Virus record (IMG/VR): IMGVR_UViG_2617270943_000005
Coordinates: 1 to 18,763 of that record
DNA: 18,763 nt
Origin: a virus
Lineage: Duplodnaviria > Heunggongvirae > Uroviricota > Caudoviricetes
Reading direction: 5' to 3' (one strand)
Below, one piece after another: positions 1 through 15,076 of this stretch. Each line of letters starts with the position of its first letter. Within the stretch, counting starts at the first letter, position 1. A program made the translations under genes and the position numbers. The notes beneath the pieces were generated by a model, which made no database searches, had not been told where the DNA came from, and worked only from the letters and a program-made list of their open reading frames with translations.

Positions 1-483
1 ATGACGAAGAAAAAAGCACATAAACCTGGTTCAGCGACCATCGCGCTTAACAAGCGCGCCCGTCACGAATACTTTATCGAAGAAGAGTTCGAGGCGGGAC
101 TTGCCCTGCAAGGCTGGGAGGTTAAATCCCTGCGCGCAGGAAAAGCCAATATCAGCGACAGCTACGTCCTTCTGCGTGACGGAGAGGCATTTCTGTTTGG
201 CGCTAACATCACGCCAATGGCTGTGGCATCCACGCATGTGGTGTGCGATCCTACCCGTACCCGCAAGTTACTTCTCAACCAGCGCGAACTGGACTCATTG
301 TACGGTCGCGTCAATCGAGAAGGCTATACCGTAGTGGCGCTCTCCCTGTACTGGAAAAATGCCTGGTGCAAAGTGAAAATCGGCGTCGCTAAAGGTAAGA
401 AACAGCACGATAAACGTTCAGACATTAAAGAACGCGAATGGCAGGTGGATAAAGCGCGTATCATGAAAAACGCCCACCGTTAA
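1..483 (+). CDS. smpB: SsrA-binding protein SmpB, full length (160 aa)
   Basis: ORF 1..483 translates to [30 protein letters not shown]..., which I recognise as enterobacterial SmpB; it lies immediately upstream of the tmRNA gene, the conserved smpB-ssrA synteny. Confidence 0.96.
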
Positions 484-697
484 ATCTGCACTCCAATTAT
501 TGACCAGTTCCTCACCGCGCCACCCTCTCCGGCGGCGCGAATGAACATCTTATTGGCTATCACATCCGCCCCAAATGTTGCCATCCCATTGCTTAATCGA
601 ATAAAAATCAGGCTACACGGGTGCTAAATCTTTAACGATAACGCCATTGAGGCTGGTCATGGCACTCATGAATCTGGTATACTTACCGTTACACATT

Positions 698-1060
698 GGG
701 GCTGATTCTGGATTCGACGGGATTTGCGAAACCCAAGGTGCATGCCGAGGGGCGGTTGGCCTCGTAAAAAGCCGCAAAAAATAGTCGCAAACGACGAAAA
801 CTACGCTTTAGCAGCTTAATAACCTGCTTAGAGCCCTCTCTCCCTAGCCTCCGCTCTTAGGACGGGGATCAAGAGAGGTCAAACCCAAAAGAGATCGCGT
901 GGAAGCCCTGCCTGGGGTTGAAGCGTTAAAACTTAATCAGGCTAGTTTGTTAGTGGCGTGTCCGTCCGCAGCTGGCAAGCGAATGTAAAGACTGACTAAG
1001 CATGTAGTACCGAGGATGTAGGAATTTCGGACGCGGGTTCAACTCCCGCCAGCTCCACCA
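698..1060 (+). ncRNA. ssrA: tmRNA (SsrA), 363 nt
   Basis: 5' end GGGGCTGATTCTGGATTCGACGGG; tag-peptide reading frame GCA AAC GAC GAA AAC TAC GCT TTA GCA GCT TAA (ANDENYALAA) at 787..819; tRNA-like 3' end GGTTCAACTCCCGCCAGCTCCACCA ending at 1060. Confidence 0.96.
1016..1053 (+). repeat. Left copy of 38-bp direct repeat (att core inside ssrA 3' end)
   Basis: ATGTAGGAATTTCGGACGCGGGTTCAACTCCCGCCAGC at 1016..1053 is identical to 14884..14921; the flanks diverge on both sides (CTCCACCA here versus GATTGGACG at the right copy). Confidence 0.85.
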
Positions 1061-1070
1061 AATAAAACAA

Positions 1071-1103
1071 GGGGTTACGTGAAAGCGTAGCCCCTTTTTC
1101 TTT
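1071..1103 (+). terminator. Intrinsic terminator downstream of ssrA
   Basis: GGGGTTACG (1071..1079) pairs with CGTAGCCCC (1086..1094) with one G-U wobble, loop TGAAAG, followed by TTTTTCTTT. Confidence 0.7.
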
Positions 1104-1183
1104 GGTAGTGGCGGCAAAATGGCGACAGACTTTTGCGTCTATCTTGCCTGTCGCCCTCTTGAAATCATGCAAAGAGGTTTCAC

Positions 1184-1828
1184 ATGGAAGAACTTCACTT
1201 TGTTTACATCAATGCAAATGGTCGTACCTACTGGTTTGTGCAATACGGCATGACCACGCAGCCGTATCAGTTCACGAAAGGCAGCATCTTTCATCTGATG
1301 GAACCGGATATTAATCAGGAGATCTACGGGCTGCCCGGCTATCTTTCTGCCATCCCATCCGCTTTGCTCAACGAGTCCGCCACGCTGTTCCGCCGGAAGT
1401 ATTACATTAACGGTAGTCATGCAGGCTTCATCATGTACATGACCGATGCCGCGCAGAACCAGGAGGATGTGAACAACCTCCGCAATGCCATGAAAAGCGC
1501 CAAAGGACCAGGTAACTTCCGCAACCTGTTTATGTACTCGCCTAACGGTAAAAAGGACGGGCTTCAGATTATCCCGTTGTCAGAGGTGGCGGCGAAGGAT
1601 GAGTTTTTGAACATCAAAAACGTGAGCCGGGACGACATGATGGCGGCGCACCGCGTACCGCCGCAAATGATGGGGATTATGCCTAGCAATGTCGGGGGGT
1701 TTGGGGATGTGGAGAAGGCTAGTAAGGTATTCGTAAGAAACGAATTGATGCCCCTGCAGAAACGATTGCAGGAACTAAATAACTGGTTGGACGAAGAAGT
1801 GCTCAATTTTTCAACCTATGAGCTTTAG
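1184..1828 (+). pseudogene. 3' fragment of a phage portal gene (P2 Q-like), N-terminal part missing
   Basis: 214-aa translation (MEELHFVYINANGRTYWFVQYG...GIMPSNVGGFGDVEKASKVF...) resembles the C-terminal portion of PBSX/P2-family portal proteins. The frame opens only 7 codons upstream (in-frame TGA at 1160..1162), about 100 bp from the ssrA junction. It converges on gene A across the cos-like motif, as Q does in P2. Confidence 0.55.
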
Positions 1829-1836
1829 TTTTAAAA

Positions 1837-1856
1837 CGAAGACCATTAGGTCTTCG
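1837..1856. terminator. Bidirectional hairpin terminator between the convergent portal fragment and RT
   Basis: CGAAGACC (1837..1844), loop ATTA, GGTCTTCG (1849..1856): perfect 8-bp stem flanked by AAAA upstream and CTTTATTT downstream, so there is a U-run after the stem on both strands. The RT stop codon (1846..1848) lies in the loop. Confidence 0.6.
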
Positions 1857-2808
1857 CTTTATTTAAAGGGTTCTTTCCATATTTTTTTTCTAATTTGCTA
1901 ATATAAGTTATTAATCTTCTATGGCTTTTTGAATCCACACTTAAAATAAATGACAACCATCCCCTAACGTGTTCTATCTCAGAAGACTTACCGCAAAATA
2001 TATGATGTATCTTTGCTCTAATTTCTTTATATTTTTCTCTACCTATCCCAACTTTCTCTTGTGAAATAACTAAACCTGTAACTTTCCTCTGACTACGAGG
2101 CCCACTAATACAAGTTTTTTTTGAGTTAATAACCAATCCTTCACTTGGGATTATAGAAAATAAAAAATCACGTGCTTTAACAACCTTTTTCATAGACTGT
2201 GCAGATAAGGTGAGATCATCGGCATATCTCGTATATATCAAGCCCCGACTACCTGCATAGCCCTGAATACGATAATCAAGTTTAGAACATATTAGATTAG
2301 CTAATTTAGGTGATGATGGAGCACCTTGTGGTAGCAGATTTTTATAACAACATATTTTTGTCAAAACTGAAGATATTAGTCGATTATAACCAAGAGAATG
2401 GAACACTCCAAAAACTTTGTTAGCAGTTAAACTTGGGAAAAAATCCTCCAAATCAATATTCAGTATAAAGTTTGCCCCAATATGCGGGGTAGCATTATTC
2501 AAAATAGATTGGTGCTTTTCAAATCCAATAGAAAAAGGAGATGACGACAGTTTATCTAAAATGTTACGTAGAACCCATCCTTGTAAGGCTTTAAGTTCTC
2601 GAGAAGGTTGGTAAATGGTTCTCATTCTCTTCTCTGGGCCTTTCTTTTCTACAGTGTAGATCCTATAGCGAAAATCAGCTGTATAGATTAACAACCGAAG
2701 TGTTTCAACAGATATGCGAGTCGCCTTAGACATGTCATGCAAATTGTTCATGACAGGTAGGCCGAGATTTCTCAATCTAAAAGTGTTCAAATATTCAGCG
2801 GATTTCAT
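1846..2808 (-). CDS. ret: Retron reverse transcriptase (320 aa); recognised from memory as the retron Ec86 / Retron-Eco1 RT
   Basis: RT motifs in the translation: LPQGAPSSP, YADD (RYADDLTLS) and the retron-typical VTG (QRKVTGLVIS). ATG at 2808..2806 lies 7 nt downstream of the msr-msd 3' inverted repeat. Length and N-terminus MKSAEYLNTFRLRNLGLPVM match my recollection of the Ec86 RT. Confidence 0.93.
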   Translation of the reverse strand: MKSAEYLNTFRLRNLGLPVMNNLHDMSKATRISVETLRLLIYTADFRYRIYTVEKKGPEKRMRTIYQPSRELKALQGWVLRNILDKLSSSPFSIGFEKHQSILNNATPHIGANFILNIDLEDFFPSLTANKVFGVFHSLGYNRLISSVLTKICCYKNLLPQGAPSSPKLANLICSKLDYRIQGYAGSRGLIYTRYADDLTLSAQSMKKVVKARDFLFSIIPSEGLVINSKKTCISGPRSQRKVTGLVISQEKVGIGREKYKEIRAKIHHIFCGKSSEIEHVRGWLSFILSVDSKSHRRLITYISKLEKKYGKNPLNKAKT

Positions 2809-2814
2809 GAAAGT

Positions 2815-2984
2815 TGCGCACCCTTACGTCAGAAAAAACGGGTTTCCTGGTTGGCTCGGAGAGCATCAGGCGATGCTCTCCGTTCCAACAAGGAAAACAG
2901 ACAGTAACTCAGATTCAATGCAGGATGCCGAAACAACATCCAGAGGTTGACCTTAATGATAAACCTCTCGCTAAGGGTGCGCAT
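2815..2984 (-). ncRNA. msr-msd: Retron msr-msd non-coding RNA (template/primer for msDNA), Ec86-type
   Basis: Minus strand reads ATGCGCACCCTTAGCGAGAGGTTTATCATTAAGGTCAACCTCTGGATGTTGTTTCGGCATCCTGCATTGAATCTGAGTTACTGTCTGTTTTCCTTGTTGGAACGGAGAGCATCGCCTGATGCTCTCCGAGCCAACCAGGAAACCCGTTTTTTCTGACGTAAGGGTGCGCA. Perfect 12-bp a1/a2 inverted repeats at 2972..2983 and 2815..2826; long msd hairpin with an 11-bp tip stem at 2857..2882. Matches the Ec86 ncRNA as I recall it from retron-editing constructs. Confidence 0.9.
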
Positions 2985-3894
2985 ACGGAATCTTATCATA
3001 GTTAAATGTTGATTTTCTACGGTTTTCAAAATTCATAATCTCAAGCCGCAATCGGTCAAGTGTCTTTCTATCAAAGACGCTCCTAACATAGCTAGCCCCC
3101 AAAGCAGTGACCTGATAACCATCAGTCATTTGAAGTATTTTTCGTTCATTTATTAGACGAGAAACAACGGATCTAACAATAATTTTAGATAAAACATCAT
3201 CTTGCTTTATCGCTTTAAAAGCTAGTTCACACAGTGTGCGGTAGTTGACACTATCCAGTAAATAGATACAAGGCAATAGAAACCGCTCTGCGTATAATAT
3301 ATTTCCAATATCTTTTGATACTTTATTTTCTTTCCTAACCTGCTTAATAGATGCCATTAATTTTTTATATAATCGTAATTTTCTGGCAACATCAATAGAT
3401 GAATCACACATTTCTTTTAGTTCATTTGAACTACAACGCAAAACAGATTTTGAATTAAACTTACGCAACAAGCGAACAGGACCATAGTTAATAAAGCTAC
3501 GTTTTGATTTAAATTTTGCATCTTGAATGCAAATCAACTTTCTCCTTAAGTTTTCATTATTAGAGAACGCACCAAGCTCTGTGAAAGACCCCGGACTTTC
3601 AGGAAATAAAATTATTACATCGACAGCTTCAGCCAGAATATTTTCTAAACTTAAAAGGCTATGCTGCCCTTGACCAGCCAAAAGATCATCAAATAGATCT
3701 TCTGGATAAAATATATCAACATCACTGAACTTTGCTAAAAATTGTGATAATTGATGACGCCAAGATTGATGATTAGCAACGTCACCACCACATAGAAAAA
3801 TGGTTATTTTAATATTAGCTCCTCGATAGAAGCCTTTCTTTGTGAGATGTCCTATAAGCTGTTGTTGCTGCTCATCGGTAAATTTTTTATTCAT
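2971..3894 (-). CDS. Retron effector, nucleoside 2-deoxyribosyltransferase (NDT)-like protein with C-terminal extension (about 307 aa)
   Basis: Same strand as, and immediately upstream of, msr-msd and ret. NDT-like features: ANIKITIFLCGGD and VDVIILFPESPGSFTELGAF (candidate catalytic Glu in a DxGxxFExG-like context). Start chosen at ATG 3894..3892 because of the SD GGGGAGA 5 nt upstream; the six-frame ORF extends to 4026 but that N-terminal extension crosses a GC-rich non-coding-looking patch. Stop TAG at 2973..2971 lies inside the msr a1 repeat. Confidence 0.82.
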   Translation of the reverse strand: MNKKFTDEQQQQLIGHLTKKGFYRGANIKITIFLCGGDVANHQSWRHQLSQFLAKFSDVDIFYPEDLFDDLLAGQGQHSLLSLENILAEAVDVIILFPESPGSFTELGAFSNNENLRRKLICIQDAKFKSKRSFINYGPVRLLRKFNSKSVLRCSSNELKEMCDSSIDVARKLRLYKKLMASIKQVRKENKVSKDIGNILYAERFLLPCIYLLDSVNYRTLCELAFKAIKQDDVLSKIIVRSVVSRLINERKILQMTDGYQVTALGASYVRSVFDRKTLDRLRLEIMNFENRRKSTFNYDKIPYAHP

Positions 3895-3966
3895 AATCTC
3901 CCCGCTTTTTTCTACTTTATACATCAAGTTATGAATAGATCCAATCTCCATACCCCATGGCGCGCG

Positions 3967-3985
3967 CTCGTATCCCCGCCACGCC
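3967..3985 (-). other. cos-like motif (possible remnant of P2/186 cohesive-end site)
   Basis: Minus strand 3985..3973 reads GGCGTGGCGGGGA, matching the first 13 nt of the 19-nt P2/186 cohesive end as I recall it (P2 GGCGAGGCGGGGAAAGCAC); it then diverges. It sits in a short GC-rich patch between gene A and the portal fragment, where cos lies in P2. Confidence 0.35.
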
Positions 3986-4237
3986 TGCCCGCTTTGTATA
4001 GCGGTTTTCATGCACTCGCATGGCATAAGGGAAACCTTGCCAGAACTGGCGACCCTCAGCGAAAACGATCTTCAAACGATCATGCGGATTCATGCAGCAT
4101 AGACAGGCACTACTGAGCAATAGCGCTTGAGTTCAGTCAGATATGAGTCCTCAATGTAATACTAATACATCTTAACCGTTCATCATTATTCACATCGGGC
4201 TATGTAATTACAGAAAAACTTTTCACAATCAATTTTA

Positions 4238-4266
4238 TACTGGATTATTTCAGTTTATTGTATAAT
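4238..4266 (+). promoter_or_regulatory. Candidate sigma70 promoter for the 303-aa hotspot gene
   Basis: TATAAT at 4261..4266 immediately preceded by TG (4259..4260), in an AT-rich leader about 40 nt upstream of the start codon at 4306; the -35 region is weak. Confidence 0.4.
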
Positions 4267-4305
4267 TCATGACGCATGCAAATTGACATTAATTCAGGAG
4301 ACAAA

Positions 4306-5217
4306 ATGACATTAATTGTAGCTGGTTTCGAAAAAGATGGAACAATTGTTTTTTGCGGGGACTCACTAATAACAACAAAAGCAAATGGAAGCACTGTAAA
4401 ATTGACATCGTCCTTCAGAAAAATAATACCACTAGAAATTATTGTGCGAGTACCGGAAATCGATCCAAGTGGAAAAATCATAAATTACATTGAAAGCCTT
4501 TGCCAACATCGCTGCATGATTGCATTTGCAGGAAGCACGCTAGTTTCTCAACATATTATAAATTCTATACAAGGTCATCTGAAACAAATAAAATACACAT
4601 ATGATTCTGGCACATATGACTATTCAGAAGGATGCATAAAGGGTGCTGGCTATAAGTTAATAATGGGTTGTGAAGATAACAAAAGCGTTGAGGAAACCTA
4701 TTGGAACGAAGATATGTTTGTTGAGCCAGTAAAGAATGCGAACGAACTTATTAATAAAAATTTTCTACGCAACGTCTTTAGCCACTGCATACAGAAAACC
4801 ATGAATGAATTTTACATTAATATTAATGAGGAATTTAATCCAGAGTGGTTTGCAAGCGATTTCATTGTAGCTCTGTCTTGCTATGAGACTAAAAAAAACC
4901 ATCTTTTTACCTTTAAAATGGAATTTAATGAGTCAGGGGTCAATCTTATAGAAAAAGAAATTAATATCAATGAACTGGCAATAATTGGCATTTCAAGATA
5001 TAGCGAAGAAATAATTCAAGCATATCAAACTCAAAAAGCGACCCTCAGTACATCTGAAATTCTCAGCCAAGAGATTACTAAAGCAATCATAGACAATGAA
5101 AGCATTGATCTTAGAGAAATAGGAGATCCTGTCGTATTAAAAAAATTCAATCAACATCGTGAATTACGTGATGAGCAAAAACACTGGAGGTGCAATACTC
5201 CTCGAGAAAACCAATAA
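4306..5217 (+). CDS. Hypothetical protein (303 aa), AT-rich cargo gene in the old/tin-equivalent hotspot; possible Ntn-hydrolase (HslV/proteasome-like) N-terminal domain
   Basis: Long ORF with SD AGGAG (4296..4300) 5 nt before ATG 4306. N-terminus MTLIVAGFEKDGTIVFCGDSLITTKANGSTVKL... has Thr at position 2 and a pattern reminiscent of HslV ([23 protein letters not shown]...K). Codon usage is distinct from the neighbouring phage genes. Family assignment is tentative. Confidence 0.75.
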   Translation: MTLIVAGFEKDGTIVFCGDSLITTKANGSTVKLTSSFRKIIPLEIIVRVPEIDPSGKIINYIESLCQHRCMIAFAGSTLVSQHIINSIQGHLKQIKYTYDSGTYDYSEGCIKGAGYKLIMGCEDNKSVEETYWNEDMFVEPVKNANELINKNFLRNVFSHCIQKTMNEFYININEEFNPEWFASDFIVALSCYETKKNHLFTFKMEFNESGVNLIEKEININELAIIGISRYSEEIIQAYQTQKATLSTSEILSQEITKAIIDNESIDLREIGDPVVLKKFNQHRELRDEQKHWRCNTPRENQ

Positions 5218-5244
5218 ACGCCTCGCTATACTCGTTGTTCAACC

Positions 5245-5279
5245 TTGCTGACGCGAGAATAAAATTCTCACGTCAGCAA
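5245..5279. repeat. 35-bp inverted repeat (16-bp arms, 1 mismatch, 3-nt spacer) between convergent genes
   Basis: TTGCTGACGCGAGAAT aaa ATTCTCACGTCAGCAA at 5245..5279, between the stop of the 303-aa gene (5217) and the stop of the 62-aa ORF (5291). No clear U-tract follows on either strand. Confidence 0.5.
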
Positions 5280-5290
5280 CGTTCCTGCTG

Positions 5291-5479
5291 CTAACCGAGA
5301 AGATCCATTGAGCGGTTGTATTCGTGGCTTCTGATTTTTGCCATGAGTTCATCAGTCAATTCAGAAACCCACTGCAGAGCCAGCCCCTTCTCTTCATCAC
5401 TACACTCACTAGCCGCTACAAGCTTAAGAAAAAAATCAATGCGCTGGAGCTTCAAAGACTCCAAAAAATAGTCCTGCAT
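5291..5479 (-). CDS. Small protein (62 aa), putative SOS-inducible Tum-like antirepressor
   Basis: ATG 5479..5477 preceded by a strong SD AGGAGG; a LexA box lies 41 bp upstream; it sits downstream of gene A, as tum does in coliphage 186. The function is inferred from context; I do not recognise the protein sequence itself. Confidence 0.5.
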   Translation of the reverse strand: MQDYFLESLKLQRIDFFLKLVAASECSDEEKGLALQWVSELTDELMAKIRSHEYNRSMDLLG

Positions 5480-5519
5480 CTTTCCTCCTATGACACCAAA
5501 GCAATACTGTATATATAAC

Positions 5520-5539
5520 TACTGTTTATATTTACAGTA
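5520..5539. promoter_or_regulatory. LexA box (SOS operator)
   Basis: TACTGTTTATATTTACAGTA matches the consensus TACTGT(AT)4ACAGTA with perfect CTGT-N8-ACAG; an additional CTGT half-site lies at 5507..5510. Confidence 0.6.
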
Positions 5540-5631
5540 TATAATAATCTTACTGATGTAAAACGTTTTTTTACGTTCATCAGCCTGATATGCCTGGTAT
5601 TATTAAGAGCACGAATTGTTAACCCGCGTAA

Positions 5632-8073
5632 TTAATACAGGTTCCGCCACTTATCATCTTCCTGCAAACGCTGGTTCCGATAGAAGATTCGCAGGCCTGC
5701 TCCTGACGGAATGCTGCCGCCGCGAAGGAGTAAATCGACCTCTTTCTCGCTGCCATCAAATCCTCTGGACTTCAGTTCATACACGAGCTGCAGTCGCTGA
5801 TGGTCTGTAATTCGCTGTTTGTAGTCTTTACGACGTTTCGGTTTAACCAGGCGTAACCTTGCTACCAGTTCCCGGCGCTCTTTTTTGCTCAGACTGTGCA
5901 GGTATTCGTGCAACTCTTTGTCATCCATGCGGGTGATATCCGTTCTGGTATCCCCATCAGCTGATTTGTTTTTCTCCTGTTGGTTCAAATTTTCAGCAAG
6001 GGGACAGTTATTGCCACGAGTCCAAGGGGCGCAAGCGCCCTGGTCGGCTGCCGCCTCCTGAACGTCAACGGCCTTACGAACCATTTTCCACTTCACTGCA
6101 TGAGTGCAGATCTTGCCCTCTGCAATGGGTGACCAGATGCCATAAATACGAATACCGTGATCGCCATAGGCGGTTGGCTCTTCGTTGATTTCATAAGCGG
6201 TTCTGATGAGGTGATATTTGCGGGGAACCAGTACGCCGCCCTGCTTCATGATGTAGGTGGCAAAACAACCAGCATCAGCAGCAGCCAGGATGGCATCAAG
6301 GCGCGGGTTATCCAGTACCGGCGCACCTGCTTTTTTGTCACCCTGTTGCCTTGCCGCCTGACCAGCCAGCAATCGCAGTTCACGGTAAGCCTGACGCCCC
6401 GGAATGCCAAAGAAGCGGAATTGCTGAACACGATGCAGAGACGCCCAGGCATTAACGTATTCAGCGTTATCACACAGGGATTTCCCCGTTTCCTTACTGA
6501 TCTCGCCAGCCAGACCACGTCCGTCAATATTCTTACTGATATATTTCGCAATGTAGCTTGTCGGCGTTCCTTTGCGCGGGTTTATCAGCTCAGACTTAAA
6601 GCGTGGCCCCGTGTTATTGCCCAGCTCCTCGCGGTCTTCACGGATGGCAAACTTACGCAACAATGCAGTAATGGCGCGGCGGTCTTTTTTGCGCATGAAA
6701 CACAACAGGTGCCAGTGAACTGTGCCGTCATGATGCGGCTCAGCCACCCGCACGCCATACCAGCGCAACCCGGCTTTGTGCATAGCCTTACGAAATGCAG
6801 CAAACATGCCGACCAGATAATCACTGCTTTGTCTTACTGTCGCGTTGGTCCAGGTCGGGTTTGGCCTGCCGTTATTTAGCGTGGAATGGAAACGTGACGG
6901 ACAGGTGATGGTGTAGAAAACGGCGCAGTCACCGCGCATTTCCGCGATAAGCTCCAGACCTTTAACACAGGCCATCATCTCATTGCGGCGATGCGCAGGG
7001 TTGCTGCTGCTGGCGTTTACCACATCCTCCATGTCCAGCGTGTCGCCGTCTTCGTTCACCAGTTCATGAGAACGAAAAAACTCCAGCGACTTACGGCGCT
7101 GCTCACGTTTATGCATCACGGCTTCATAGCTGACATAGGGAGATGCTTTTTTGCTGACCAGGCAAACAGCACGCAACTGCTCTTCCCGCCATTCGCAACG
7201 CATCTTCCATAATTTCCGGTACCACCAGTCGGCGCACAACATACGCGCCAGCGAACCCGGAATGAGTTCATAGGGCACGGGTTTACGGCGGTTTCTTTTC
7301 CGGCGGAGTTGCTCAAACGCAGGCGGGATGACATCCAGACGCAGGGTTTCCGCTGCCATCTTTTCCCATGTCTTGCGGATTTCTTCTGGCTTAACGTCAT
7401 CGGTGACATACAAATCGCCACAAGCTGCATCAAGGCACATGCTCATATGCGCAGCGACAAGGGTAGACAAACGTTTCACCTGATCCTGACTCATTTCAGG
7501 CAGGATCAGCAGGCCGTCCAGCCCTTCATGGCTTGCCATAAAGCGAAAAGAAGTGGATAGCTGACTGTCGCGTACATGCTCCAGTCGTTCCAGACATGGC
7601 TTAATCGTCTCACGCAAATAGCGGGAATAAGCCTTTGGCCTGCCCAGGCTGCTGAAGTATTCAATACGTTGCATCAGCGGCTTGCTGATATGGGAAGGCT
7701 GGGCATTGACGTCCGCCAGAATGACCATATCTGGATTAAAACGCTGCTGCTCATGCGCCAGCTTTGCCCGGCTAATGAGCTTATCCTGCTCCATTTCGCG
7801 TTGGACAGGATCACGGGATTCATTAAAGAAATAACGCTCCCAGACCTGATCACTCAGTGCCTCGCGGCGCAGTTGTTCCTGCTCGTTATCGGCAGCGTAC
7901 AGAGTGATCAGGTTTGAAAGCGCAGAAATCGGCGCAACTTCCGCCGGGTCCAGATAAGGGTTAATGGCTTTCTTAGGTAAATTCCACGAATAACCCCCGG
8001 CAGAATTCTCAATGCTACCGGAAGTTACACTGACAAATGGATCGGCAAGACGGCCTGTGCTGATCTCTGTCAC
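5632..8073 (-). CDS. A: Phage replication initiation endonuclease (P2 gpA family), 813 aa
   Basis: Large ORF whose translation I recognise as the P2/186 replication protein A family. GTG start at 8073..8071 overlaps the TGA stop of the upstream gene (GTGA); SD AGGAG 7 nt upstream. Confidence 0.88.
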
Positions 8074-9080
8074 TCACAGACTCCTGCATATACACTGCTG
8101 CACACCGCTTTATCATTCATGCCTGCCAGCAGGTCAAACTGCATACCGCCCCGAGTCGTTAAGGCCCAGTCCCGATAAGTTTCAATGCCATAAGCATCAA
8201 CAGTTATGACTTCGATCCGTTTTTCAGCACGGCGCGGATCATGCGTGGATGGAAAGAACGTTGAATTGCCATGTCTTGAACATTCCGCAACCAGTCTTTC
8301 CCACTCAGCCACTCGGCGGATTTCTTCTGGCCAGCGTTGGAAAATCTCAGCAAGTTCTGACTTGCGAGCATGAATACATGGCATACAACCGACACGACTG
8401 CATCCCTGCATATAAAGGGGGTTAGGCTTAATGCCATGACGTTTGGCAATAGCAAACACATCCTCATGCAGCCAATTAAGGATCGGACGATAAACATGCA
8501 GGCCCAGAGTATTGTCTGCATCGTCCTCCCACTCAGGCAACAATGCACGTTCCGGTGATTCCTGCCCCCGGACTCCTTGCCAGCTGATTACCTCATCGTA
8601 TTTATCCAGAGCCGGATCGATTACCTGTGTACGTATTGGTTCATGTTTCAGTTCAAAAGTGCAGAAACGAGCTTTTGTTGAAGGGAAGCGACCTTTCCAC
8701 ATGCACAAATCAAGAAACGGAACGCCGGTTGGTTTAAGGATTTCCAGTGCCCGGTAAATACGTTCCTCAGCCTCATCTGTCGACATACCACATTCCTCAA
8801 CGAGAGAAATGGGCCACTTTTCCGCAATGAATTTACGTTTCCCTTCTATCTGGCGTGTGAAATCCGCTTTGACGCGAATAATCTTGCCCAGCTTTGATTC
8901 CAGATAATCCAGATATTCTATTGTCTGTGGATGTTCATGACCCGTATCGGCAAATACAGAAATATGCGGAACATCGTTTTCAATGGCTCTTAGCCATTGA
9001 GCGAGACTATCTTTGCCACCAGAAGTAGTGATGATGTTAATGGTGCTTGAGGCAAAGCAACGCGGATCGATAGCATTCAT
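8070..9080 (-). CDS. Phosphoadenosine-phosphosulfate (PAPS) reductase-like family protein, 336 aa
   Basis: N-terminal ITTSGGKDS is the PP-loop (SGGxDS) typical of PAPS reductase / ATP-pyrophosphatase-fold proteins; ATG 9080 overlaps the dam stop (ATGA); SD GAGG present. Confidence 0.8.
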
Positions 9081-9925
9081 GAGCGTACCTCAACGGTACG
9101 GTCAGAGCCGCTGGCAAAATCGACACCAAACCACCCAGCTGATTTGGTGGCAATGATTTCTGCTGCAGATTTACTCTCGCCAGCTGACACGCCGATGCTG
9201 CGTTTTGCCTTGATGTAGTAGTGAGTGAAATTGCGATACAGCGAACGAATCAGGGATGTGTCACTGTTAGAAACAATGACCGGATGACCTTCAGATGATC
9301 GATGTTCAAGAACGGATGCCAGGTGATACTGGTCATCTTCAGTGAAGCCATCAGTGTGATAGCCGGAAAACGTACCGTCATAAGGCGGATCGCAATACAC
9401 CACATCCCCCGCCTTCAACATCGCCAGCGTTTCATCAAAGCTGGCGCAGATAAACGTTGCCCGCTGGGCTTTCTCTGCAAATGCGCGAATTTCTTTTTCA
9501 GGGAAATACGGATTTTTATAATTACCGTAGGGAATGTTGAAATACCCGCTCTTGTTATAGCGACATAACCCACGATAACCATGACGATTGAGATACAGAA
9601 AATATACCGCTTTCATGAAATCAGTAATTTCAGTGGAGTAATTAAACTCCTGCCTTATGTTGTAATAAGCCACCTCCCTGTTTGCTTCCTCAAATAAAGC
9701 TCTGGCACGAGATATAAACGCCTCACAATCAGCAGCAACCTTTTTATAGAGGTTGATTAAATCAGGATTAATATCCGCAACAAGATAGCTGGGGTAATCC
9801 GTCTCCATCATCACTGCACAGGAACCCGCGAAAGGTTCAACCAGTCGCGGGCCAGCAGGAAGATGCTTTTTCAGTTCGGACATTATGGCGGTTTTATTTC
9901 CCGCCCATTTCAGGATGGTGCTCAT
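9077..9925 (-). CDS. dam: DNA N6-adenine methyltransferase (Dam family), 282 aa
   Basis: Motifs [16 protein letters not shown] and DPPY (VYCDPPYDG). Start chosen at ATG 9925 (SD GGAGG; overlaps the stop of the upstream gene, ATGA) rather than the longer six-frame ORF starting at 9985. Confidence 0.88.
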
Positions 9926-10149
9926 ACAGCACCTCCGTTGTAATGTTTGCCTTTCAGCTCTGCGATTTCCTGACAGGTAATGCAAAGCTGCACACCCGGA
10001 ATGGCACGACGGCGTGCTGGCGGAATTGGCGCTTCACACTCAACGCAAAGCACGCGGGACACGCCCGGCGTTTTGGCACGGGCAGCACGGATATGACGTT
10101 GGCGTTCTTCTTCAACTCGCTGCTGTACGAGATCCATTGCATCAGCCAT
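9922..10149 (-). CDS. TraR/DksA-family C4 zinc-finger protein, 75 aa
   Basis: CVEC-x17-CITC four-cysteine finger in a 75-aa protein, typical of small phage TraR/DksA-like proteins; start overlaps the upstream stop (TGATG). Confidence 0.82.
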   Translation of the reverse strand: MADAMDLVQQRVEEERQRHIRAARAKTPGVSRVLCVECEAPIPPARRRAIPGVQLCITCQEIAELKGKHYNGGAV

Positions 10150-10382
10150 CAGTGGATCTCCTGCGCTTCGTTCTGGATTGCTTCAGCAGTCACACGCAGC
10201 AGTTCTGCCGCTTCGACGTGGTTTAACTGGCGGGATGTGATATGACACGCCAGGCGATCAAGGCGAGCTGCCATTGCTTCAGCCCTTGCCCGGCGTTCTT
10301 CCAGACGAGCCTCTGTCAGTAAAATATTAAGCCCTGCGTCATCCGGTCCGGTTTTAGTCGTGAAGGTTTCAATATTACGCAT
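10149..10382 (-). CDS. Hypothetical phage early protein, 77 aa
   Basis: ORF in the translationally coupled early operon; start at ATG 10382 with SD AGGAG 8 nt upstream (the six-frame call begins at an upstream TTG). Confidence 0.55.
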   Translation of the reverse strand: MRNIETFTTKTGPDDAGLNILLTEARLEERRARAEAMAARLDRLACHITSRQLNHVEAAELLRVTAEAIQNEAQEIH

Positions 10383-10449
10383 AATCAATTCTCCTGTATT
10401 TAGATAAAGGGATGCCCGGCGGGTTTACGCCATTAATTTCATTAGTTGG

Positions 10450-10791
10450 TTAATTCGGCATGGTTAGCCGTCTGGGAAATAAGCTCACCACTGCACGAAA
10501 ATGATTCATTGCTTTAATCAGCTCCCGCTTTTCGTCAGTGGTCAGCTCATTAATGCTGATGCTATGACGTTCAGCTGGAATTTTTGCCATAAAGAATATG
10601 GCAGCCAGTGCTCGTTTATTTTGTTCGTTATTGATATCCCGTGGATCACGCATATCTTTAATAAACCGCTCAAGCTCTGACTCAATATTCAGGCCAAATA
10701 CTTTCGCCCTTAACTCCGCAATGTGATTAAGTCCATTCAGGCGTTCACCGGGGCTTAATGGAACAGTCGCCGCAGCGCCTTCAATAGCCAT
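10450..10791 (-). CDS. Hypothetical phage early protein, 113 aa
   Basis: ORF with ATG 10791 and upstream GGGGGAA; same orientation as the early operon; no family recognised. Confidence 0.5.
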   Translation of the reverse strand: MAIEGAAATVPLSPGERLNGLNHIAELRAKVFGLNIESELERFIKDMRDPRDINNEQNKRALAAIFFMAKIPAERHSISINELTTDEKRELIKAMNHFRAVVSLFPRRLTMPN

Positions 10792-10955
10792 TTGTTCCCC
10801 CGTTTTTTCGTAGATAGTTCTGCCAGCAATTCATCTTGTGAACGGCACGGATGCCAGCGTTTACCATCCTCACCCATGATCCAGCCGTGACCGTAGTGCA
10901 TTGCCGGACTTTGTTTTACCAGGAGCGATGCAAATGATGGTTCTTTCATCAGCAT
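10755..10955 (-). CDS. Hypothetical small protein, 66 aa, immediately after cII (position of 186 fil)
   Basis: ATG 10955 with SD GAGGTG 5 nt upstream; overlaps the next ORF by 37 nt; the assignment rests on position only. Confidence 0.4.
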   Translation of the reverse strand: MLMKEPSFASLLVKQSPAMHYGHGWIMGEDGKRWHPCRSQDELLAELSTKKRGNKWLLKALRRLFH

Positions 10956-10962
10956 AAGCACC

Positions 10963-11472
10963 TCACAGCAAACCGAATGAAGCACCGAGGCCAGTCACGG
11001 TATCAACCGCACTCGCCATCGCAGGATTAGCCTGTAAACGGGCCTGCAATGAAACAGCAGCCAGCGCCATCAGTCGTGTAACAGAGTTAATGCTGCTGAT
11101 AGCATCACGACGACCGGCACAGGTTTTTACCTCGCCAGATACCGCACCTGCAGCAACACGCCCGATCTCTGCGGTTGCACTCATGACGTAATGTGGCAGT
11201 TTCTCTTTTGCCACCTCATTAATCGGTACACATGGTAGGCAGTGAATCTGTGCCAGAAAACCATCTATCAGCGTTGAATCTTCAGTCAGATCGGTAAGCA
11301 GCCAGATTTCTGGCGCATTGAGCTGATGCGGTTGATCTGGGTTGAGTTTGTTTCGCAGTGTCTGGACATTCATTCCTGCACGTTCTGCCAGCTTCGCCAT
11401 ATTGTGACGAAGTGCAAAAGCTCTACAGGCTTCATCAAAATGCGGGTGTTTGGAAATCTTATAATCAAACAT
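10963..11472 (-). CDS. cII: Phage CII-like transcriptional activator (186 CII family), 169 aa
   Basis: 169-aa protein MFDYKISKHPHFDEACRAFALRHNMAKLAERAGMNVQTLRNKLNP... matches the length and N-terminal HTH region of coliphage 186 CII as I recall it; second gene of the rightward-type operon after the apl/cox-like gene. Confidence 0.8.
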   Translation of the reverse strand: MFDYKISKHPHFDEACRAFALRHNMAKLAERAGMNVQTLRNKLNPDQPHQLNAPEIWLLTDLTEDSTLIDGFLAQIHCLPCVPINEVAKEKLPHYVMSATAEIGRVAAGAVSGEVKTCAGRRDAISSINSVTRLMALAAVSLQARLQANPAMASAVDTVTGLGASFGLL

Positions 11473-11504
11473 GCTACCCCCTTAGAAAGTTCTCATAATT
11501 GAAC

Positions 11505-11747
11505 TTACTTACCAACAATGACGCGGAAGTTGGAATGACCGAGGGATTCACGGACCTGATCGGTTTTGTACATTAAATAACGCAGGCTTACGCGGCCTTT
11601 GTTTTTTTCCTTCTTGACCATGTATTTAGCAAGCTGACCATGGTGAATTTTTTGATACACAGAGCCGCGGGAGATACCTTCCCATTCAGCGAACTCAGCA
11701 GGCGTTGCCATCTCTTTTGGTACACGAATTGAAATATCAGTACTCAT
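11505..11747 (-). CDS. Cox/Apl-like small DNA-binding protein (excisionase/repressor), 80 aa
   Basis: First gene of the operon divergent from cI-int; small basic protein; position identical to apl in 186 and cox in P2. Confidence 0.6.
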   Translation of the reverse strand: MSTDISIRVPKEMATPAEFAEWEGISRGSVYQKIHHGQLAKYMVKKEKNKGRVSLRYLMYKTDQVRESLGHSNFRVIVGK

Positions 11748-11834
11748 AGTGCAGTATCTCTTACTTTGTGTGCGTGTTAGTTCGTTTTAGCCCGTCTCTT
11801 AAACTCTCACATCAAGAGACACGAAGACATTACG

Positions 11835-11849
11835 ATCTTGATTCAAGAT
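11835..11849. promoter_or_regulatory. Perfect 15-bp palindrome in the lysis-lysogeny switch region (candidate operator)
   Basis: ATCTTGATTCAAGAT at 11835..11849, 20 bp upstream of the cI start; a second inverted repeat GTCTCTT-N13-AAGAGAC lies at about 11794..11820. Confidence 0.4.
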
Positions 11850-11868
11850 TGTCAAATGGAGATTACCA

Positions 11869-12501
11869 ATGTTAAACATCAGAATGGGTTCCGATACGGG
11901 AGGTAAAGCAGCTATTGAGAGGCTGCTTGCGGCTTATGGATTTACAACTAAGCAGGCATTAAGCGAGCACCTGAATGTCTCAAAAAGCACTATGGCGAAC
12001 AGAGTGTTACGTGACAGTTTTCCTGCTGACTGGATAATTCAGTGCGCACTAGAAACCGGTGTTTCGTTGCTTTGGTTAGCTACAGGACAGGGAAGCATGA
12101 AAGGAGGAAGTGAGCCTGAAAAAAGATCTCACAATGAGAACAAACAAGCAATTAAACCGTTATCCAAACTCATAACTCCATCTATTCCTAAAGGAACCTT
12201 GGAGAATGGACAACTCAGTATTGATGAAGAGATTTTCTTAGACCACAGCATATTACCTGCAGATTATGAAGAATCGATGTTCTTAGAAACCCCTACTGAT
12301 TGTTATCTCATCGATAAATCAGTTAAACAAGTCAGCAATGGATTCTGGCTTATCAATATTGATGGAATGATTATTATTGCAAAAATCATGCGGATTCCCG
12401 GCAATAAGATTGTAGTAAATCAAGATGAAGCGTCTTTCGAGTGCTCTGCTGATGATGTGGAAGTTATTGGGCGTGCAGTCAAAGTAATAAAGAGTATCTA
12501 A
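11869..12501 (+). CDS. cI: Phage CI-like repressor (186 CI family), 210 aa
   Basis: N-terminal HTH region (TTKQALSEHLNVSKSTMANRVLRD) and two-domain architecture like 186 CI; directly upstream of, and coupled to, int; divergent from the apl/cII operon. Confidence 0.8.
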   Translation: MLNIRMGSDTGGKAAIERLLAAYGFTTKQALSEHLNVSKSTMANRVLRDSFPADWIIQCALETGVSLLWLATGQGSMKGGSEPEKRSHNENKQAIKPLSKLITPSIPKGTLENGQLSIDEEIFLDHSILPADYEESMFLETPTDCYLIDKSVKQVSNGFWLINIDGMIIIAKIMRIPGNKIVVNQDEASFECSADDVEVIGRAVKVIKSI

Positions 12502-12503
12502 AC

Positions 12504-13520
12504 ATGACTGTCAGAAAACAGCCAAACGGTAAATGGTTGTGCGAGTGCTATCCCAATGGACGCAATGGCAAGCGCGTGCGTAAGCAATTTGCTACGAAAG
12601 GCGAAGCCATTGCTTTTGAAAGCTTCACAATGGCAGAAGTGAACAAAAAACCATGGCTGGGGGAAAAGGAAGATCGGCGACACCTATCAGAATTAATTGA
12701 GCAGTGGTATTCCCTATATGGTCAAACACTCGCAGACCCCAAGCGCCTCATGGCGAAACTTAGAATTATCTGTAATGGTCTGGGCGATCCCATCGCCTCA
12801 GAACTGACAGCCGGTGACTTTACGAAATACCGCGAAGCACGGTTAAAAGGCGAAGTGCGAAATGAAGATGGCACGCTTATGTCGCCCGTTAAGCCCCGCA
12901 CGGTAAACCTTGAACAGCGCAATCTATCATCGGTGTTCGGTACATTAAAAAAACTAGGACACTGGTCAGCACCAAACCCGCTGGCAGGACTTCCAACCTT
13001 CAAAATTGCTGAAGGTGAGCTGGCTTTTCTTTCCGCGGACGAAATCAAACGCCTATTGGTTGCCTGCGCAGATTCCCAGAGCCCCAGCCTTCTTATGATT
13101 GCAAAAATATGCCTGGCCACCGGCGCACGCTGGAGTGAAGCCGAAAACCTGCAGGGCCATCAGTTATCCAAATACCGCATCACTTATACCAAGACGAAGG
13201 GCAAGAAAAACCGTACCGTGCCGATATCTCAGGATCTGTACAACGAACTTCCCAAAAACAGAGGGAAGTTATTCACGCCATGCAGAAAAGCCTTTGAGCG
13301 AGCAGTAAAGCGGGCCGGTATCGTTCTACCTGAGGGACAATGTACTCATGTGTTACGCCATACATTCGCCAGCCACTTCATGATGAATGGAGGAAATATA
13401 CTGGTTCTCAAAGAAATTCTGGGGCATGCCGATATAAAGATGACAATGGCTTACGCTCATTTTTCTCCTGACCATTTGGAAGATGCCGTCCTGAAAAATC
13501 CTTTAACTAATTTAAGGTAA
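12504..13520 (+). CDS. int: Tyrosine integrase (P2/186 Int family), 338 aa
   Basis: Catalytic signature ATGARWSE ... HVLRHTFAS ... LGHADIKMTMAYAH (R, H-x-x-R, Y); size typical of P2 Int. Confidence 0.92.
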   Translation: MTVRKQPNGKWLCECYPNGRNGKRVRKQFATKGEAIAFESFTMAEVNKKPWLGEKEDRRHLSELIEQWYSLYGQTLADPKRLMAKLRIICNGLGDPIASELTAGDFTKYREARLKGEVRNEDGTLMSPVKPRTVNLEQRNLSSVFGTLKKLGHWSAPNPLAGLPTFKIAEGELAFLSADEIKRLLVACADSQSPSLLMIAKICLATGARWSEAENLQGHQLSKYRITYTKTKGKKNRTVPISQDLYNELPKNRGKLFTPCRKAFERAVKRAGIVLPEGQCTHVLRHTFASHFMMNGGNILVLKEILGHADIKMTMAYAHFSPDHLEDAVLKNPLTNLR

Positions 13521-13527
13521 TAGTTCA

Positions 13528-14766
13528 ATGGTTATTGAAACTAAAAGCAAAAAAATATCAAAAGTTGCGTTAAAAAGGCTTTTTAACACTATTTTAAAAA
13601 AATCCTCAATTCGTCCTCCTATAGAAGTTGGCAAAAATAATGACCTAATTACTGATTTCTCTGCAAAATGTGAAAAATTTAAAGATTGCCTGAAAGAATA
13701 CATAGAAAACAATAATGATGATATCTTAGCAAGAAGAGTTAAGAGCAGATTAAAAGTTATTGAGTCCGTGCAAGAAGGCATAATAAATTGTTTGGAATGC
13801 TTTCTTTCCGGAGATATCAAGTCAGCGTATGATTCTTTTGAGGAAATGCTTGAGCCAGATTTTGTATCAAGGCATATTAAAAATATTTGCATACCTTTAT
13901 CTGAAAAGTGTGGTAATAACAAGCGTCTATTTAGAGTCAGGAAATCCGAACGCCCTTTATCAACAAGAAAAGATATCTTTCATATTCCTTTCAATCAGCG
14001 CCATCTGGTTAGTGCACAACGCTACTCAGTTGCAGGTCTTCCGTGCCTTTATTTAGGAACTTCATTGTATATCTGCTGGCGAGAAATGGACAAACCCGAT
14101 TTTGATAAGTTATATATATCATCATTTACCACTAGCTCAGAGAATAATGAATCGCTACTATTAGATTTTAGTGCTGATTTCCTTTATAAAACGAAGCTAT
14201 TCTTTACATCTAAAAAAGAACATTCTTCAGCAAAAGAGCTTTCTTCGGTCACAATGTTATCATACCTCGCATTATGGCCTTTAATAATCGCATGCAATTA
14301 TTTAAAAAAACATAGCAATGCATCTTTCATTCAGGAATATATAATACCAAACTTACTTATGCAGTGGATAAGCAGGGATATTAACGATTACAACATTGTT
14401 GGAATTGCTTATCGTTCAACAAAACTACCTGCAAATGCTGATAGTGAGAGAGGGGTCAATGTCGTTCTTCCTCCAAAAATTCGTTACGAAGACATGAAGG
14501 TTAACGAATTCTGCCCAGAACTCTCCGGCTTATTTCACTGTACCCCACCAGTATCATGGCAGGTTCTAAAAACTCTTGAATATGTACCATTGCGTCAATC
14601 CTTCTCAGATAGAGAGATATTGAGTGACGAGCTCAGGAACAAAAAGCTCTGGGATATAATGGGCAATCTTGATGATGAAATTTTGAGCATTTATAAATTA
14701 TCTGACTTTTACAAGCTTGAAGTTTGTATGGATGAAATCCAAGTCCATAACGACATAAACACATAA
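13528..14766 (+). CDS. RES-domain-like protein (412 aa), AT-rich cargo between int and the right att repeat
   Basis: Segment RLFRVRKSERP...QRYSVAGLPCLYLGTSLYICWRE fits the RES-domain pattern (Arg ... G-x-P-x-LY-x-x-S ... E). Strong compositional shift to AT-rich immediately after the int stop. Confidence 0.65.
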   Translation: MVIETKSKKISKVALKRLFNTILKKSSIRPPIEVGKNNDLITDFSAKCEKFKDCLKEYIENNNDDILARRVKSRLKVIESVQEGIINCLECFLSGDIKSAYDSFEEMLEPDFVSRHIKNICIPLSEKCGNNKRLFRVRKSERPLSTRKDIFHIPFNQRHLVSAQRYSVAGLPCLYLGTSLYICWREMDKPDFDKLYISSFTTSSENNESLLLDFSADFLYKTKLFFTSKKEHSSAKELSSVTMLSYLALWPLIIACNYLKKHSNASFIQEYIIPNLLMQWISRDINDYNIVGIAYRSTKLPANADSERGVNVVLPPKIRYEDMKVNEFCPELSGLFHCTPPVSWQVLKTLEYVPLRQSFSDREILSDELRNKKLWDIMGNLDDEILSIYKLSDFYKLEVCMDEIQVHNDINT

Positions 14767-14883
14767 AAATTGGCGACAATTTGGCGGCAAATCATTAAAA
14801 ATACTTAAAACAACTAAACACAGCAAAACACTAACATACTGTTTTTAATGATAAATGCATGATTTCATTATAATTAAAATGGT

Positions 14884-14921
14884 ATGTAGGAATTTCGGAC
14901 GCGGGTTCAACTCCCGCCAGC
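14884..14921 (+). repeat. Right copy of 38-bp direct repeat (att site; duplicated ssrA 3' segment without the CCA end)
   Basis: Identical to 1016..1053; followed by CGATTGGACG instead of the tmRNA 3' end. Confidence 0.85.
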
Positions 14922-15043
14922 GATTGGACGGTGTAAGGACAACACTAACAAAAACAGGAAGTTAGAAGTCTCAGCAAGACACCGACCAGACGGTGAGGAG
15001 ATATAAAAGGATACGCAAAGGAGCCGCGGCTCCTGGTGATATG

Positions 15044-15067
15044 AAAGCCCACAGATGTGGGCTTTTT
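15044..15067. terminator. Hairpin terminator between the island and the autotransporter gene
   Basis: AAAGCCCACA / TGTGGGCTTT inverted repeat followed by a T-run on the plus strand; 10 nt from the autotransporter stop codon (15077..15079). Confidence 0.5.
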
Positions 15068-15076
15068 CGTTGATGG

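Follow-up and report, generated by a model that had tools for sequence, protein, structure and literature searches.

A probable defective Fels-2/186-type prophage integrated in the transfer-messenger RNA gene ssrA

The stretch of DNA analyzed here (18,763 nucleotides, positions 1 to 18,763 of the IMG/VR virus record IMGVR_UViG_2617270943_000005; hereafter the window) contains the transfer-messenger RNA (tmRNA) gene ssrA and, immediately downstream, a repeat-bounded insert, which is very probably a defective Peduoviridae prophage of the Fels-2/186 type that has lost its virion genes. The element is a remnant, amounting to about 40% of a prophage, cryptic and unable to make virions; there is nothing unusual in such a cryptic prophage, the hotspot is well known, and elements of this kind are familiar. 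The features that define its boundaries are the following.

1-483: smpB, upstream of ssrA
698-1060 (+): ssrA, the tmRNA gene (ARAGORN and Rfam; tag ANDENYALAA; 295.8 bits)
1016-1053 (+): attL core, the left copy of the repeat; T arm stem at 1033-1037, loop TTCAACT at 1038-1044, stem at 1045-1049
14884-14921 (+): attR core, a displaced ssrA fragment followed directly by GATTGG, lacking the 12 nt TCCACCAATCAT of the empty site
14922-15076 (+): ancestral flank between ssrA and ypjA, continuous with ssrA in strains with an empty site

A repeat search of the window identified an exact 38-nt direct repeat at 1016-1053 and 14884-14921; the chance expectation for exact 38-nt pairs in 18.8 kb is about 2e-15. 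The repeat corresponds to tmRNA positions 319-356 of 363 and comprises the T arm, GCGGG-TTCAACT-CCCGC (1033-1049), and the first four of the seven nucleotides of the 3′ acceptor strand; it stops after CCAGC, 7 nt short of the TCCACCA 3′ end. A preliminary description, made from the sequence alone, had placed both copies correctly, but had taken them for the last 38 nt of the tmRNA; its estimate of about 13.8 kb for the DNA between them agrees with the 13,830 bp measured, and the integrase gene int lies, as it had stated, at the end distal to ssrA (12504-13520, + strand, 1.36 kb from attR). The ssrA gene of the window is identical to those of K-12 and of an empty-site strain over all 363 nt. 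The locus has the organization of a tDNA-integrated island in the Islander-type definition: a complete 363-nt ssrA stands at attL and a 38-nt fragment at attR, in direct orientation, following the principle that the target gene is regenerated at one end and the displaced fragment is left at the other (PMC4383910), and a gene for a tyrosine integrase is found within the element, near one boundary. The symmetric stem-loop-stem of the T arm may represent the crossover region, and from the crossover onward the 3′ part of ssrA is presumably now phage-derived.

The ancestral state of the site was established in a collection of 5,426 complete E. coli genomes, searched with a query in which the window up to 1053 was joined to the sequence from 14922 onward. 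This query matched as a single contiguous place in 1,385 genomes, about a quarter, with the junction form ...CCAGC-TCCACCA-ATCAT-GATTGG...; in strain UID2309220033, aligned base by base, the site reads ...CCCGCCAGC-TCCACCA-ATCAT-GATTGGACGG... and goes on into ypjA. Related genomes with an unoccupied site and contiguous flanks are therefore available, and nothing of 1054-14883 was found at the empty sites of these 1,385 genomes. Since ssrA of the empty site runs straight into the sequence that starts at 14922, the ypjA side is ancestral chromosome, 1054-14883 was inserted, and 14921 is the last position of the element. K-12 and strain WL297 likewise have the sequence from 14922 onward as their native ssrA-ypjA spacer. 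The preliminary description had left undecided which flank is ancestral, and alignment to the empty-site strains assigns this role to the ypjA side; the “unrelated sequence” that it saw after the distal copy is instead the native downstream flank of ssrA, minus 12 nt. It had also considered that the DNA between the repeats could be ancestral, or that the element could extend beyond 14921; neither turned out to be so.

In K-12 the same flanks enclose the unrelated element CP4-57, in agreement with the preliminary description, and its view of the tmRNA gene as a recombination hotspot is borne out by the left junctions of the collection: besides the 1,385 empty sites, 617 genomes carry a K-12-type CP4-57 junction and in 170 the P′ arm of this phage family adjoins ssrA, while the remaining genomes (about 60%) show neither an empty site nor either of these two junctions, having other DNA downstream of ssrA.

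The assignment of the insert to a phage family is based on the integrase, on the attachment-site arms and on gene order.

1054-1183 (+): phage P′ arm, about 98% identical to the right arm of Cartapus attP
12504-13520 (+): tyrosine integrase, 338 amino acids (Pfam Int_N and Phage_integrase; catalytic-region motifs present)
14767-14883 (+): phage P arm, with arm-type sites TGGCGRCA at 14771-14778 and 14782-14789

The integrase is of the P2/186 type (PF24624) and shares 94.7% identity with the Int of phage Cartapus, 91.8% with that of Fels-2 and 54.7% with that of 186. Integration in ssrA has been published for Fels-2 and SopE-phi (PMC3448106), and the P arm and core of Fels-2 align with 14771-14907. 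The element has a putative integration module of the Fels-2 type, with an orthologous Int and an attP core that corresponds to the 3′ region of ssrA. Cartapus attP contains the core together with the arm sequences of 1054-1226 and 14767-14883, which corroborates the earlier proposal of a repeat-bounded integration in ssrA. In the Fels-2 prophage record int is likewise found at the end adjoining the att-site fragment, and its position distal to ssrA is therefore the family norm.

The P′ arm provides both the terminal TCCACCA of ssrA (1054-1060) and an intrinsic terminator (1069-1096), and carries arm-type sites TGGCGRCA at 1109-1116 and 1120-1127. TGGCGRCA occurs four times in the window, always within an arm: each arm has one pair, phased by 11 bp. 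Their placement only is informative, not their number: four are observed against 1.35 expected, and at least four are reached in 16 of 200 shuffles, so that the count is not significant by itself.

Read along the + strand, the genes follow the order: portal fragment, retron cassette, cos, a cargo gene for a 303-amino acid protein, gpA, PAPS-reductase-like gene (PAPS, phosphoadenosine phosphosulfate), Dam, TraR/DksA, DUF2732, DUF5347, Fil, cII, Apl/Cox-like excisionase, cI, int, a cargo gene for a 412-amino acid protein, attR. This order is collinear with Peduoviridae prophages, and the combination of a gpA rolling-circle initiator with a P2-type cos is that expected for the family. The earlier characterization of the insert as P2/186-like DNA is supported by the presence of gpA, a 186-type cI, cII, Fil, the Cox/Apl-like excisionase, the portal fragment and cos.

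Unlike its complete relatives, the element has a single internal deletion, which left a chimeric open reading frame (ORF) next to the P′ arm.

1184-1828 (+): chimeric ORF, in which 14 codons of CARTA_32 are fused in frame, at 1226/1227, to portal codons ~141-344

Window positions 1016-1226 correspond to Cartapus 23463-23253, a stretch made up of the core, the P′ arm and 43 nt from the start of CARTA_32, the gene adjacent to attP; positions 1225-1819 correspond to Cartapus 1481-887, covering portal codons ~141-344. At the base level the join reads GGTCGTA/CCTACTGG (here and below a slash marks the junction), TA being common to both sides as a 2-nt microhomology, and the chimeric protein reads MEELHFVYINANGR/TYWFVQYG across the fusion. 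The interval absent from the window is Cartapus 1482-23252, 21,771 bp (~21.8 kb), which contains the rest of the portal gene, the terminase, capsid, lysis and tail genes, D and ogr; the order in Cartapus is int, a RES-like gene, attP, an “exonuclease” gene, ogr and D. Of the Peduoviridae late and structural module (gpQ-P-O-N-M-L, tail, Ogr/B), only portal codons ~141-344 are retained. The same island, with the chimeric junction ORF, is present in GCA_036605005.1 (one mismatch in 11,828 nt) and in SRR1186682 (no mismatches in 10,760 nt); an assembly artefact is excluded, since independent public assemblies share both island and junction ORF. The deletion junction is absent from all 5,426 complete genomes and is known only from four near-identical contigs.

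Strain WL297 also carries a comparably truncated prophage at ssrA, with different end points. It was considered as a possible carrier of the same left breakpoint, which was rejected: at the base level its breakpoint lies ~6 nt further and joins a head-completion gene, pointing to an independent deletion. Prophages in intermediate states of decay are found in other strains. The retained genes of the element have full-length frames and are 95-99% identical to those of intact prophages, e.g., SCU-115, L010 and L012, suggesting that the deletion is recent, or that the retained half is under selection.

The right end of the element preserves a record of earlier events at the site. In a pristine lysogen the repeat, ATGTAGG...CCAGCTCCACCAA, would span 46 nt; here it is reduced to 38, as the 12 nt TCCACCAATCAT are missing on the chromosomal side of attR. 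The attR junctions of L001, L009, L023-L031, L003 and the window were compared. Among prophages with identical Int, a pristine attR was found at L027-L029; a delta-T357 attR, the same scar as that of CP4-57 attR in K-12, in WL297, L026 and L030; CCTCAT in L023; AATAAT in SCU-115, L024 and L031; while in L010 and L025 a second island follows in tandem at attR. Counting the delta-12 form of the window, at least five states of the attR fragment (pristine, delta-T357, CCTCAT, AATAAT and delta-12) occur beside an identical integrase. Excision of CP4-57 deletes U357 and inactivates tmRNA (PMC10107115). That delta-T357 is common to K-12 CP4-57 and to Fels-2-like prophages elsewhere suggests that attR scars are inherited across successive occupants of the site. 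The allele series extends the published CP4-57 case: it records successive island traffic at ssrA, whose residents often cannot leave without damage to the tmRNA.

The delta-12 scar itself is not confined to the present element. Strain 2020CK-00188 (L033) has the identical CGCCAGC/GATTGG junction and the same rare single-nucleotide polymorphism in the flank, at the right end of a different, 25-kb island; its flanks match the window at 1060 of 1060 and 3845 of 3849 positions, compared with 99.0% for WL297 and 95.7% for K-12. In L010, the closest prophage relative (98.5-99.6% identity, with the same retron effector and the same 303-amino acid cargo gene), a copy of this 25-kb island with 92.5% identity comes next in tandem (L010 11400-17216). 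Most likely, the 12-nt scar is older than the present arrangement and derives from a former tandem 25-kb island with a P4-type integrase, since lost. The 25-kb island of 2020CK-00188 (L033 23296-48000) encodes, besides the P4-type integrase, a large serine recombinase (resolvase), two ParB-like proteins, a His-Xaa-Ser radical-SAM (hxsABCD) cluster, a helicase/nuclease pair, a relaxase and two further tyrosine recombinases.

The most economical history would start with an island carrying the 12-nt scar already present at ssrA. A Fels-2-type temperate phage with a 186-like regulatory region would then have integrated into the 3′ part of ssrA through its tyrosine Int, generating a tandem array; recombination between attP and ssrA would have left the P′ arm downstream of ssrA, where it would supply the last bases of the gene and a terminator, and the displaced ssrA fragment at the far end, by int. 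With the subsequent loss of the distal island, the phage P arm and core would have come to abut the old scar. After the integration, a single illegitimate recombination at the 2-nt microhomology would have removed the ~21.8 kb between codon 15 of the gene next to attP and portal codon ~141, and with them the ogr-like late activator and every gene for tail, lysis, capsid and terminase. In the remnant, the immunity and replication module is intact, beside three AT-rich cargo loci.

Some points weigh against the interpretation given above, or against parts of it. The position of the crossover has the symmetry of the T arm as its sole indication; none of the 5,426 complete genomes covers at least 80% of the window, whose source genome is not in that collection; excision, immunity and defence by the element are predictions from sequence; and the L010 island is only a 92.5%-identical variant, the left half of which was not recovered. 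The order of events, a tandem array followed by loss of the second island, would be one of two compatible histories. According to the other, an earlier island was excised leaving a truncated ssrA (...CCAGC/GATTGG), and the phage then integrated and restored the 3′ end as a repair patch, with no tandem stage. The 38-nt core with its T arm is intact in the scarred site and could still act as attB, the sister strain 2020CK-00188 has the scar behind another island, and damage to ssrA upon CP4-57 excision, through deletion of U357, has been published (PMC10107115); however, a bare ssrA fused to the 12-nt-deleted flank occurs in none of the 5,426 genomes, whereas the tandem of prophage and island that the first history requires is seen in L010 and L025. 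A direct repair by the phage is unlikely.

The 13.8-kb element could also be imagined as a functional mini-phage or satellite, excised, replicated and packaged by a co-resident P2-like helper. Indeed, it keeps gpA with its origin and an intact cos that does not differ from the Cartapus one; the frames of gpA, int, apl, cI and cII are full length, both att arms are intact, and the WL297 prophage at ssrA is truncated to a comparable degree. However, the deletion end points in WL297 differ, the junction joins fragments of two unrelated genes in frame by accident, and its absence from the 5,426 genomes and occurrence in four near-identical contigs only indicate one lineage rather than a spreading element. 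Of the set that characterizes P4-like satellites (sid, psu, delta, alpha primase, alpA and a P4-type integrase), no member was found among the Pfam, PHROG and NCBIfam matches of any ORF. Moreover, a size of 13.8 kb, compared with ~33 kb for intact relatives such as Cartapus, is unsuited to P2 capsids, and excision would damage ssrA; a satellite of this type is very improbable. Least credible, to a degree close to negligible, are the readings in which the repeat borders a larger composite element, or in which the intervening DNA is ancestral and a duplication gave rise to the repeat: tandem island arrays do occur at ssrA in other strains, but here the sequence from 14922 onward is the native spacer of the empty-site genomes, K-12 and WL297, nothing of the insert is present at empty sites, and both arms match a free phage attP.

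For the defective prophage, some residual ability to excise may be retained; judging from the two repeat copies, recombination between them would yield a truncated tmRNA, without UCCACCA. Because the 12-nt scar destroyed the chromosomal 3′ end of the tmRNA gene, the only UCCACCA end and terminator are phage DNA. It is conceivable, if rather doubtful, that the remnant has in this way become a structural part of a housekeeping RNA gene of essential quality, and that selection on trans-translation, not on the phage genes, holds both the remnant and its defence cargo in place; if true, this state would have been reached via phage repair of a truncated tmRNA gene or via loss of a tandem neighbour.

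The retained backbone comprises cos, the replication genes and the lysis-lysogeny switch.

3955-4110 (-): cos region, matching both ends of the Cartapus genome
5632-8073 (-): gpA replication initiator (rolling-circle nickase), 813 amino acids, intact (PF05840, 2.4e-127)
8070-9080 (-): PAPS-reductase-like gene, directly upstream of A like orf84 of 186
9077-9925 (-): Dam-type orphan N6-adenine methyltransferase
9922-11472 (-): early lytic operon with TraR/DksA zinc finger, DUF2732, DUF5347, Fil and cII, all intact
11505-11747 (-): Apl/Cox-like excisionase and repressor, 80 amino acids
11869-12501 (+): 186-type cI immunity repressor, 210 amino acids

The putative 19-nt cohesive end, GGCGTGGCGGGGATACGAG (3967-3985, - strand), is the same in Cartapus and agrees with the cos annotated for 186 at 15 of 19 positions. 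The element is a mosaic: its portal-retron-cos segment shares 97.7% identity with E. coli B, whereas its immunity and int half shares 99.1% with SCU-115. The 3′ end of the PAPS-reductase-like gene overlaps the start of gpA, a feature shared with 186 orf84, which is annotated as needed for A translation; Cartapus, Fels-2, SCU-115 and L010 lack this gene, their Dam adjoining gpA directly. The PADLOC matches of the PAPS-reductase-like gene, to SspD, BrxP and DndC, are weak. In Cartapus (31990-32246), Fels-2, WL297 and BL21 the interval from gpA to cos holds a DinI/Tum-like gene; it is absent here (window 5286-5303 compared), as well as in SCU-115 and L010. If regulation follows that of 186, the SOS antirepressor route would be missing in these prophages.

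The cargo includes a retron cassette and two further genes.

1846-2808 (-): Retron-Eco1 (Ec86) reverse transcriptase (RT), 320 amino acids (PADLOC RT_II-A, 7e-128)
2815-2984 (-): retron msr-msd non-coding RNA gene, by identity to BL21(DE3)
2971-3894 (-): retron type II-A NDT/N-glycosidase effector, 307 amino acids (NDT_II-A, 3e-94; NCBIfam 176.2 against a cut-off of 100)
4306-5217 (+): cargo gene, 303 amino acids, in the P2 old/tin position; matches phrog_25719 (function unassigned)
13528-14766 (+): AT-rich cargo gene, 412 amino acids, in the int-att hotspot

The retron RT reaches 287.6 bits with NCBIfam (cut-off 235), and E. coli B has an identical RT protein. Rfam at the gathering threshold returned only the tmRNA in the window, leaving the retron RNA undetected; msr-msd was identified through its identity to BL21, the 201-nt stretch that holds it (2790-2990) matching BL21(DE3) at 200 of 200 aligned positions. 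For the effector, a 351-amino acid ORF (2971-4026) was rejected, as it over-extends through cos, and the 307-amino acid form fits the homologues. A II-A RT, its cognate msr-msd and an NDT effector lie in one cassette between portal and cos, as in type II-A3 retrons, and by its sequence the cassette is Retron-Eco1/Ec86. Filaments of its RT, multicopy single-stranded DNA (msDNA) and effector hydrolyze NAD(P)+ upon phage triggering (PMC12673091).

Sequence searches of Pfam, NCBIfam, PADLOC and the PDB with the 303- and 412-amino acid proteins gave nothing. The former is rare, with 19 clusters among 5.8 billion proteins, and its gene had no megablast match in the 5,426 E. coli genomes and no tblastn match in 50,697 phage records. 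Its AlphaFold model (predicted local distance difference test, pLDDT, 85) matched 20S proteasome subunits and HslV in Foldseek (E ~2e-5, probability 1.0), and the family has invariant Met1-Thr2, Asp19 and Lys39, to be compared with Thr1, Asp17 and Lys33 of proteasome beta subunits; the model predicts an N-terminal nucleophile (Ntn) hydrolase fold like that of proteasome subunits and HslV. The gene, at the P2 old/tin position, can reasonably be proposed as a candidate single-gene anti-phage system of a kind not yet described. An Enterobacter homologue lies in a region resembling an integrative and conjugative element (ICE-like), adjoining CTD10/MC6 conflict-system genes. The 412-amino acid family is widespread in Enterobacteriaceae (351 clusters). 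The best fold match of its model (pLDDT 75) was the RES-type ADP-ribosylating toxin ParT (E = 0.04, probability 0.99), and invariant Arg, Ser, Tyr and Glu occur in the pattern FRVRKS...QRYS...LYLG...E; a weak resemblance to RES/ADP-ribosyltransferase toxins is suggested by the model, and no antitoxin-like gene is evident adjacent to the gene. GC content at the cargo loci is 31-41%, compared with ~50% in the backbone. The three AT-rich loci, i.e., the retron and 303-amino acid gene around cos, Dam with the PAPS reductase, and the 412-amino acid gene between int and att, coincide with the defence hotspots described for P2 in the gpA-gpQ, int-gpA and int-att intervals (PMC9122126, PMC13586616).

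Among known systems, Fels-2 and SopE-phi (Salmonella enterica, Felsduovirus) and Cartapus (Elveevirus) share with the element the integrase lineage, the ssrA core, the arm-type sites and the location of int distal to ssrA, as well as the orders cI-int-(cargo)-attP and gpA-Dam-TraR-DUF2732-DUF5347-Fil-cII-apl. Unlike these phages, which are complete (~33 kb), the element lacks ~21.8 kb of late genes and the DinI/Tum-like gene, has a 186-type PAPS-reductase gene upstream of gpA, and carries different cos-proximal cargo. Coliphage 186 (Eganvirus) resembles the element in the cI, apl, cII and fil switch, in the PAPS-reductase gene overlapping the start of A, in cos (15/19) and in the arm-site core TGGCGR, which fits its annotated consensus YAYCGCCAYTY on the other strand; however, its Int is only 54.7% identical, it integrates in the tRNA-Ile gene ileY rather than in ssrA, and DNA identity is ~70%.

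The defective P2-like prophage of E. coli B/BL21 has a 97.7%-identical portal-retron-cos segment, with identical RT and msr-msd, in the same gpQ-cos hotspot, but it is located near rcdA/ybjJ (~0.88 Mb) with a different integrase, keeps its portal, terminase and tail genes, has broken gpA and cII, and lacks the 303-amino acid Ntn-like gene. Retron-Eco1/Ec86, a workhorse of genome editing, is carried here by a Fels-2-type, ssrA-integrating phage backbone, in addition to the E. coli B element. An origin of the window in E. coli B, which the Ec86 RT could suggest, was rejected, the retron of B strains lying in that other remnant and no complete genome covering at least 80% of the window. CP4-57 of K-12 uses the same target gene, supplies the ssrA 3′ end, has a scarred attR (delta-T357) and damages tmRNA upon excision; nevertheless, it is unrelated: its integrase is of the P4 type (Arm-DNA-bind_3) and adjoins ssrA, its repeat is much shorter and lies at the very 3′ end, it has no P2-like genes, and the K-12 locus has nothing but ssrA and the flank in common with the window.

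Beyond the element, a family of four-copy 23-nt direct repeats (D1) was found inside the ypjA autotransporter gene (16923-18703, - strand); nine stretches match Pfam AIDA, and the copies reflect the repeats of an AIDA-type passenger domain, not a mobile element.

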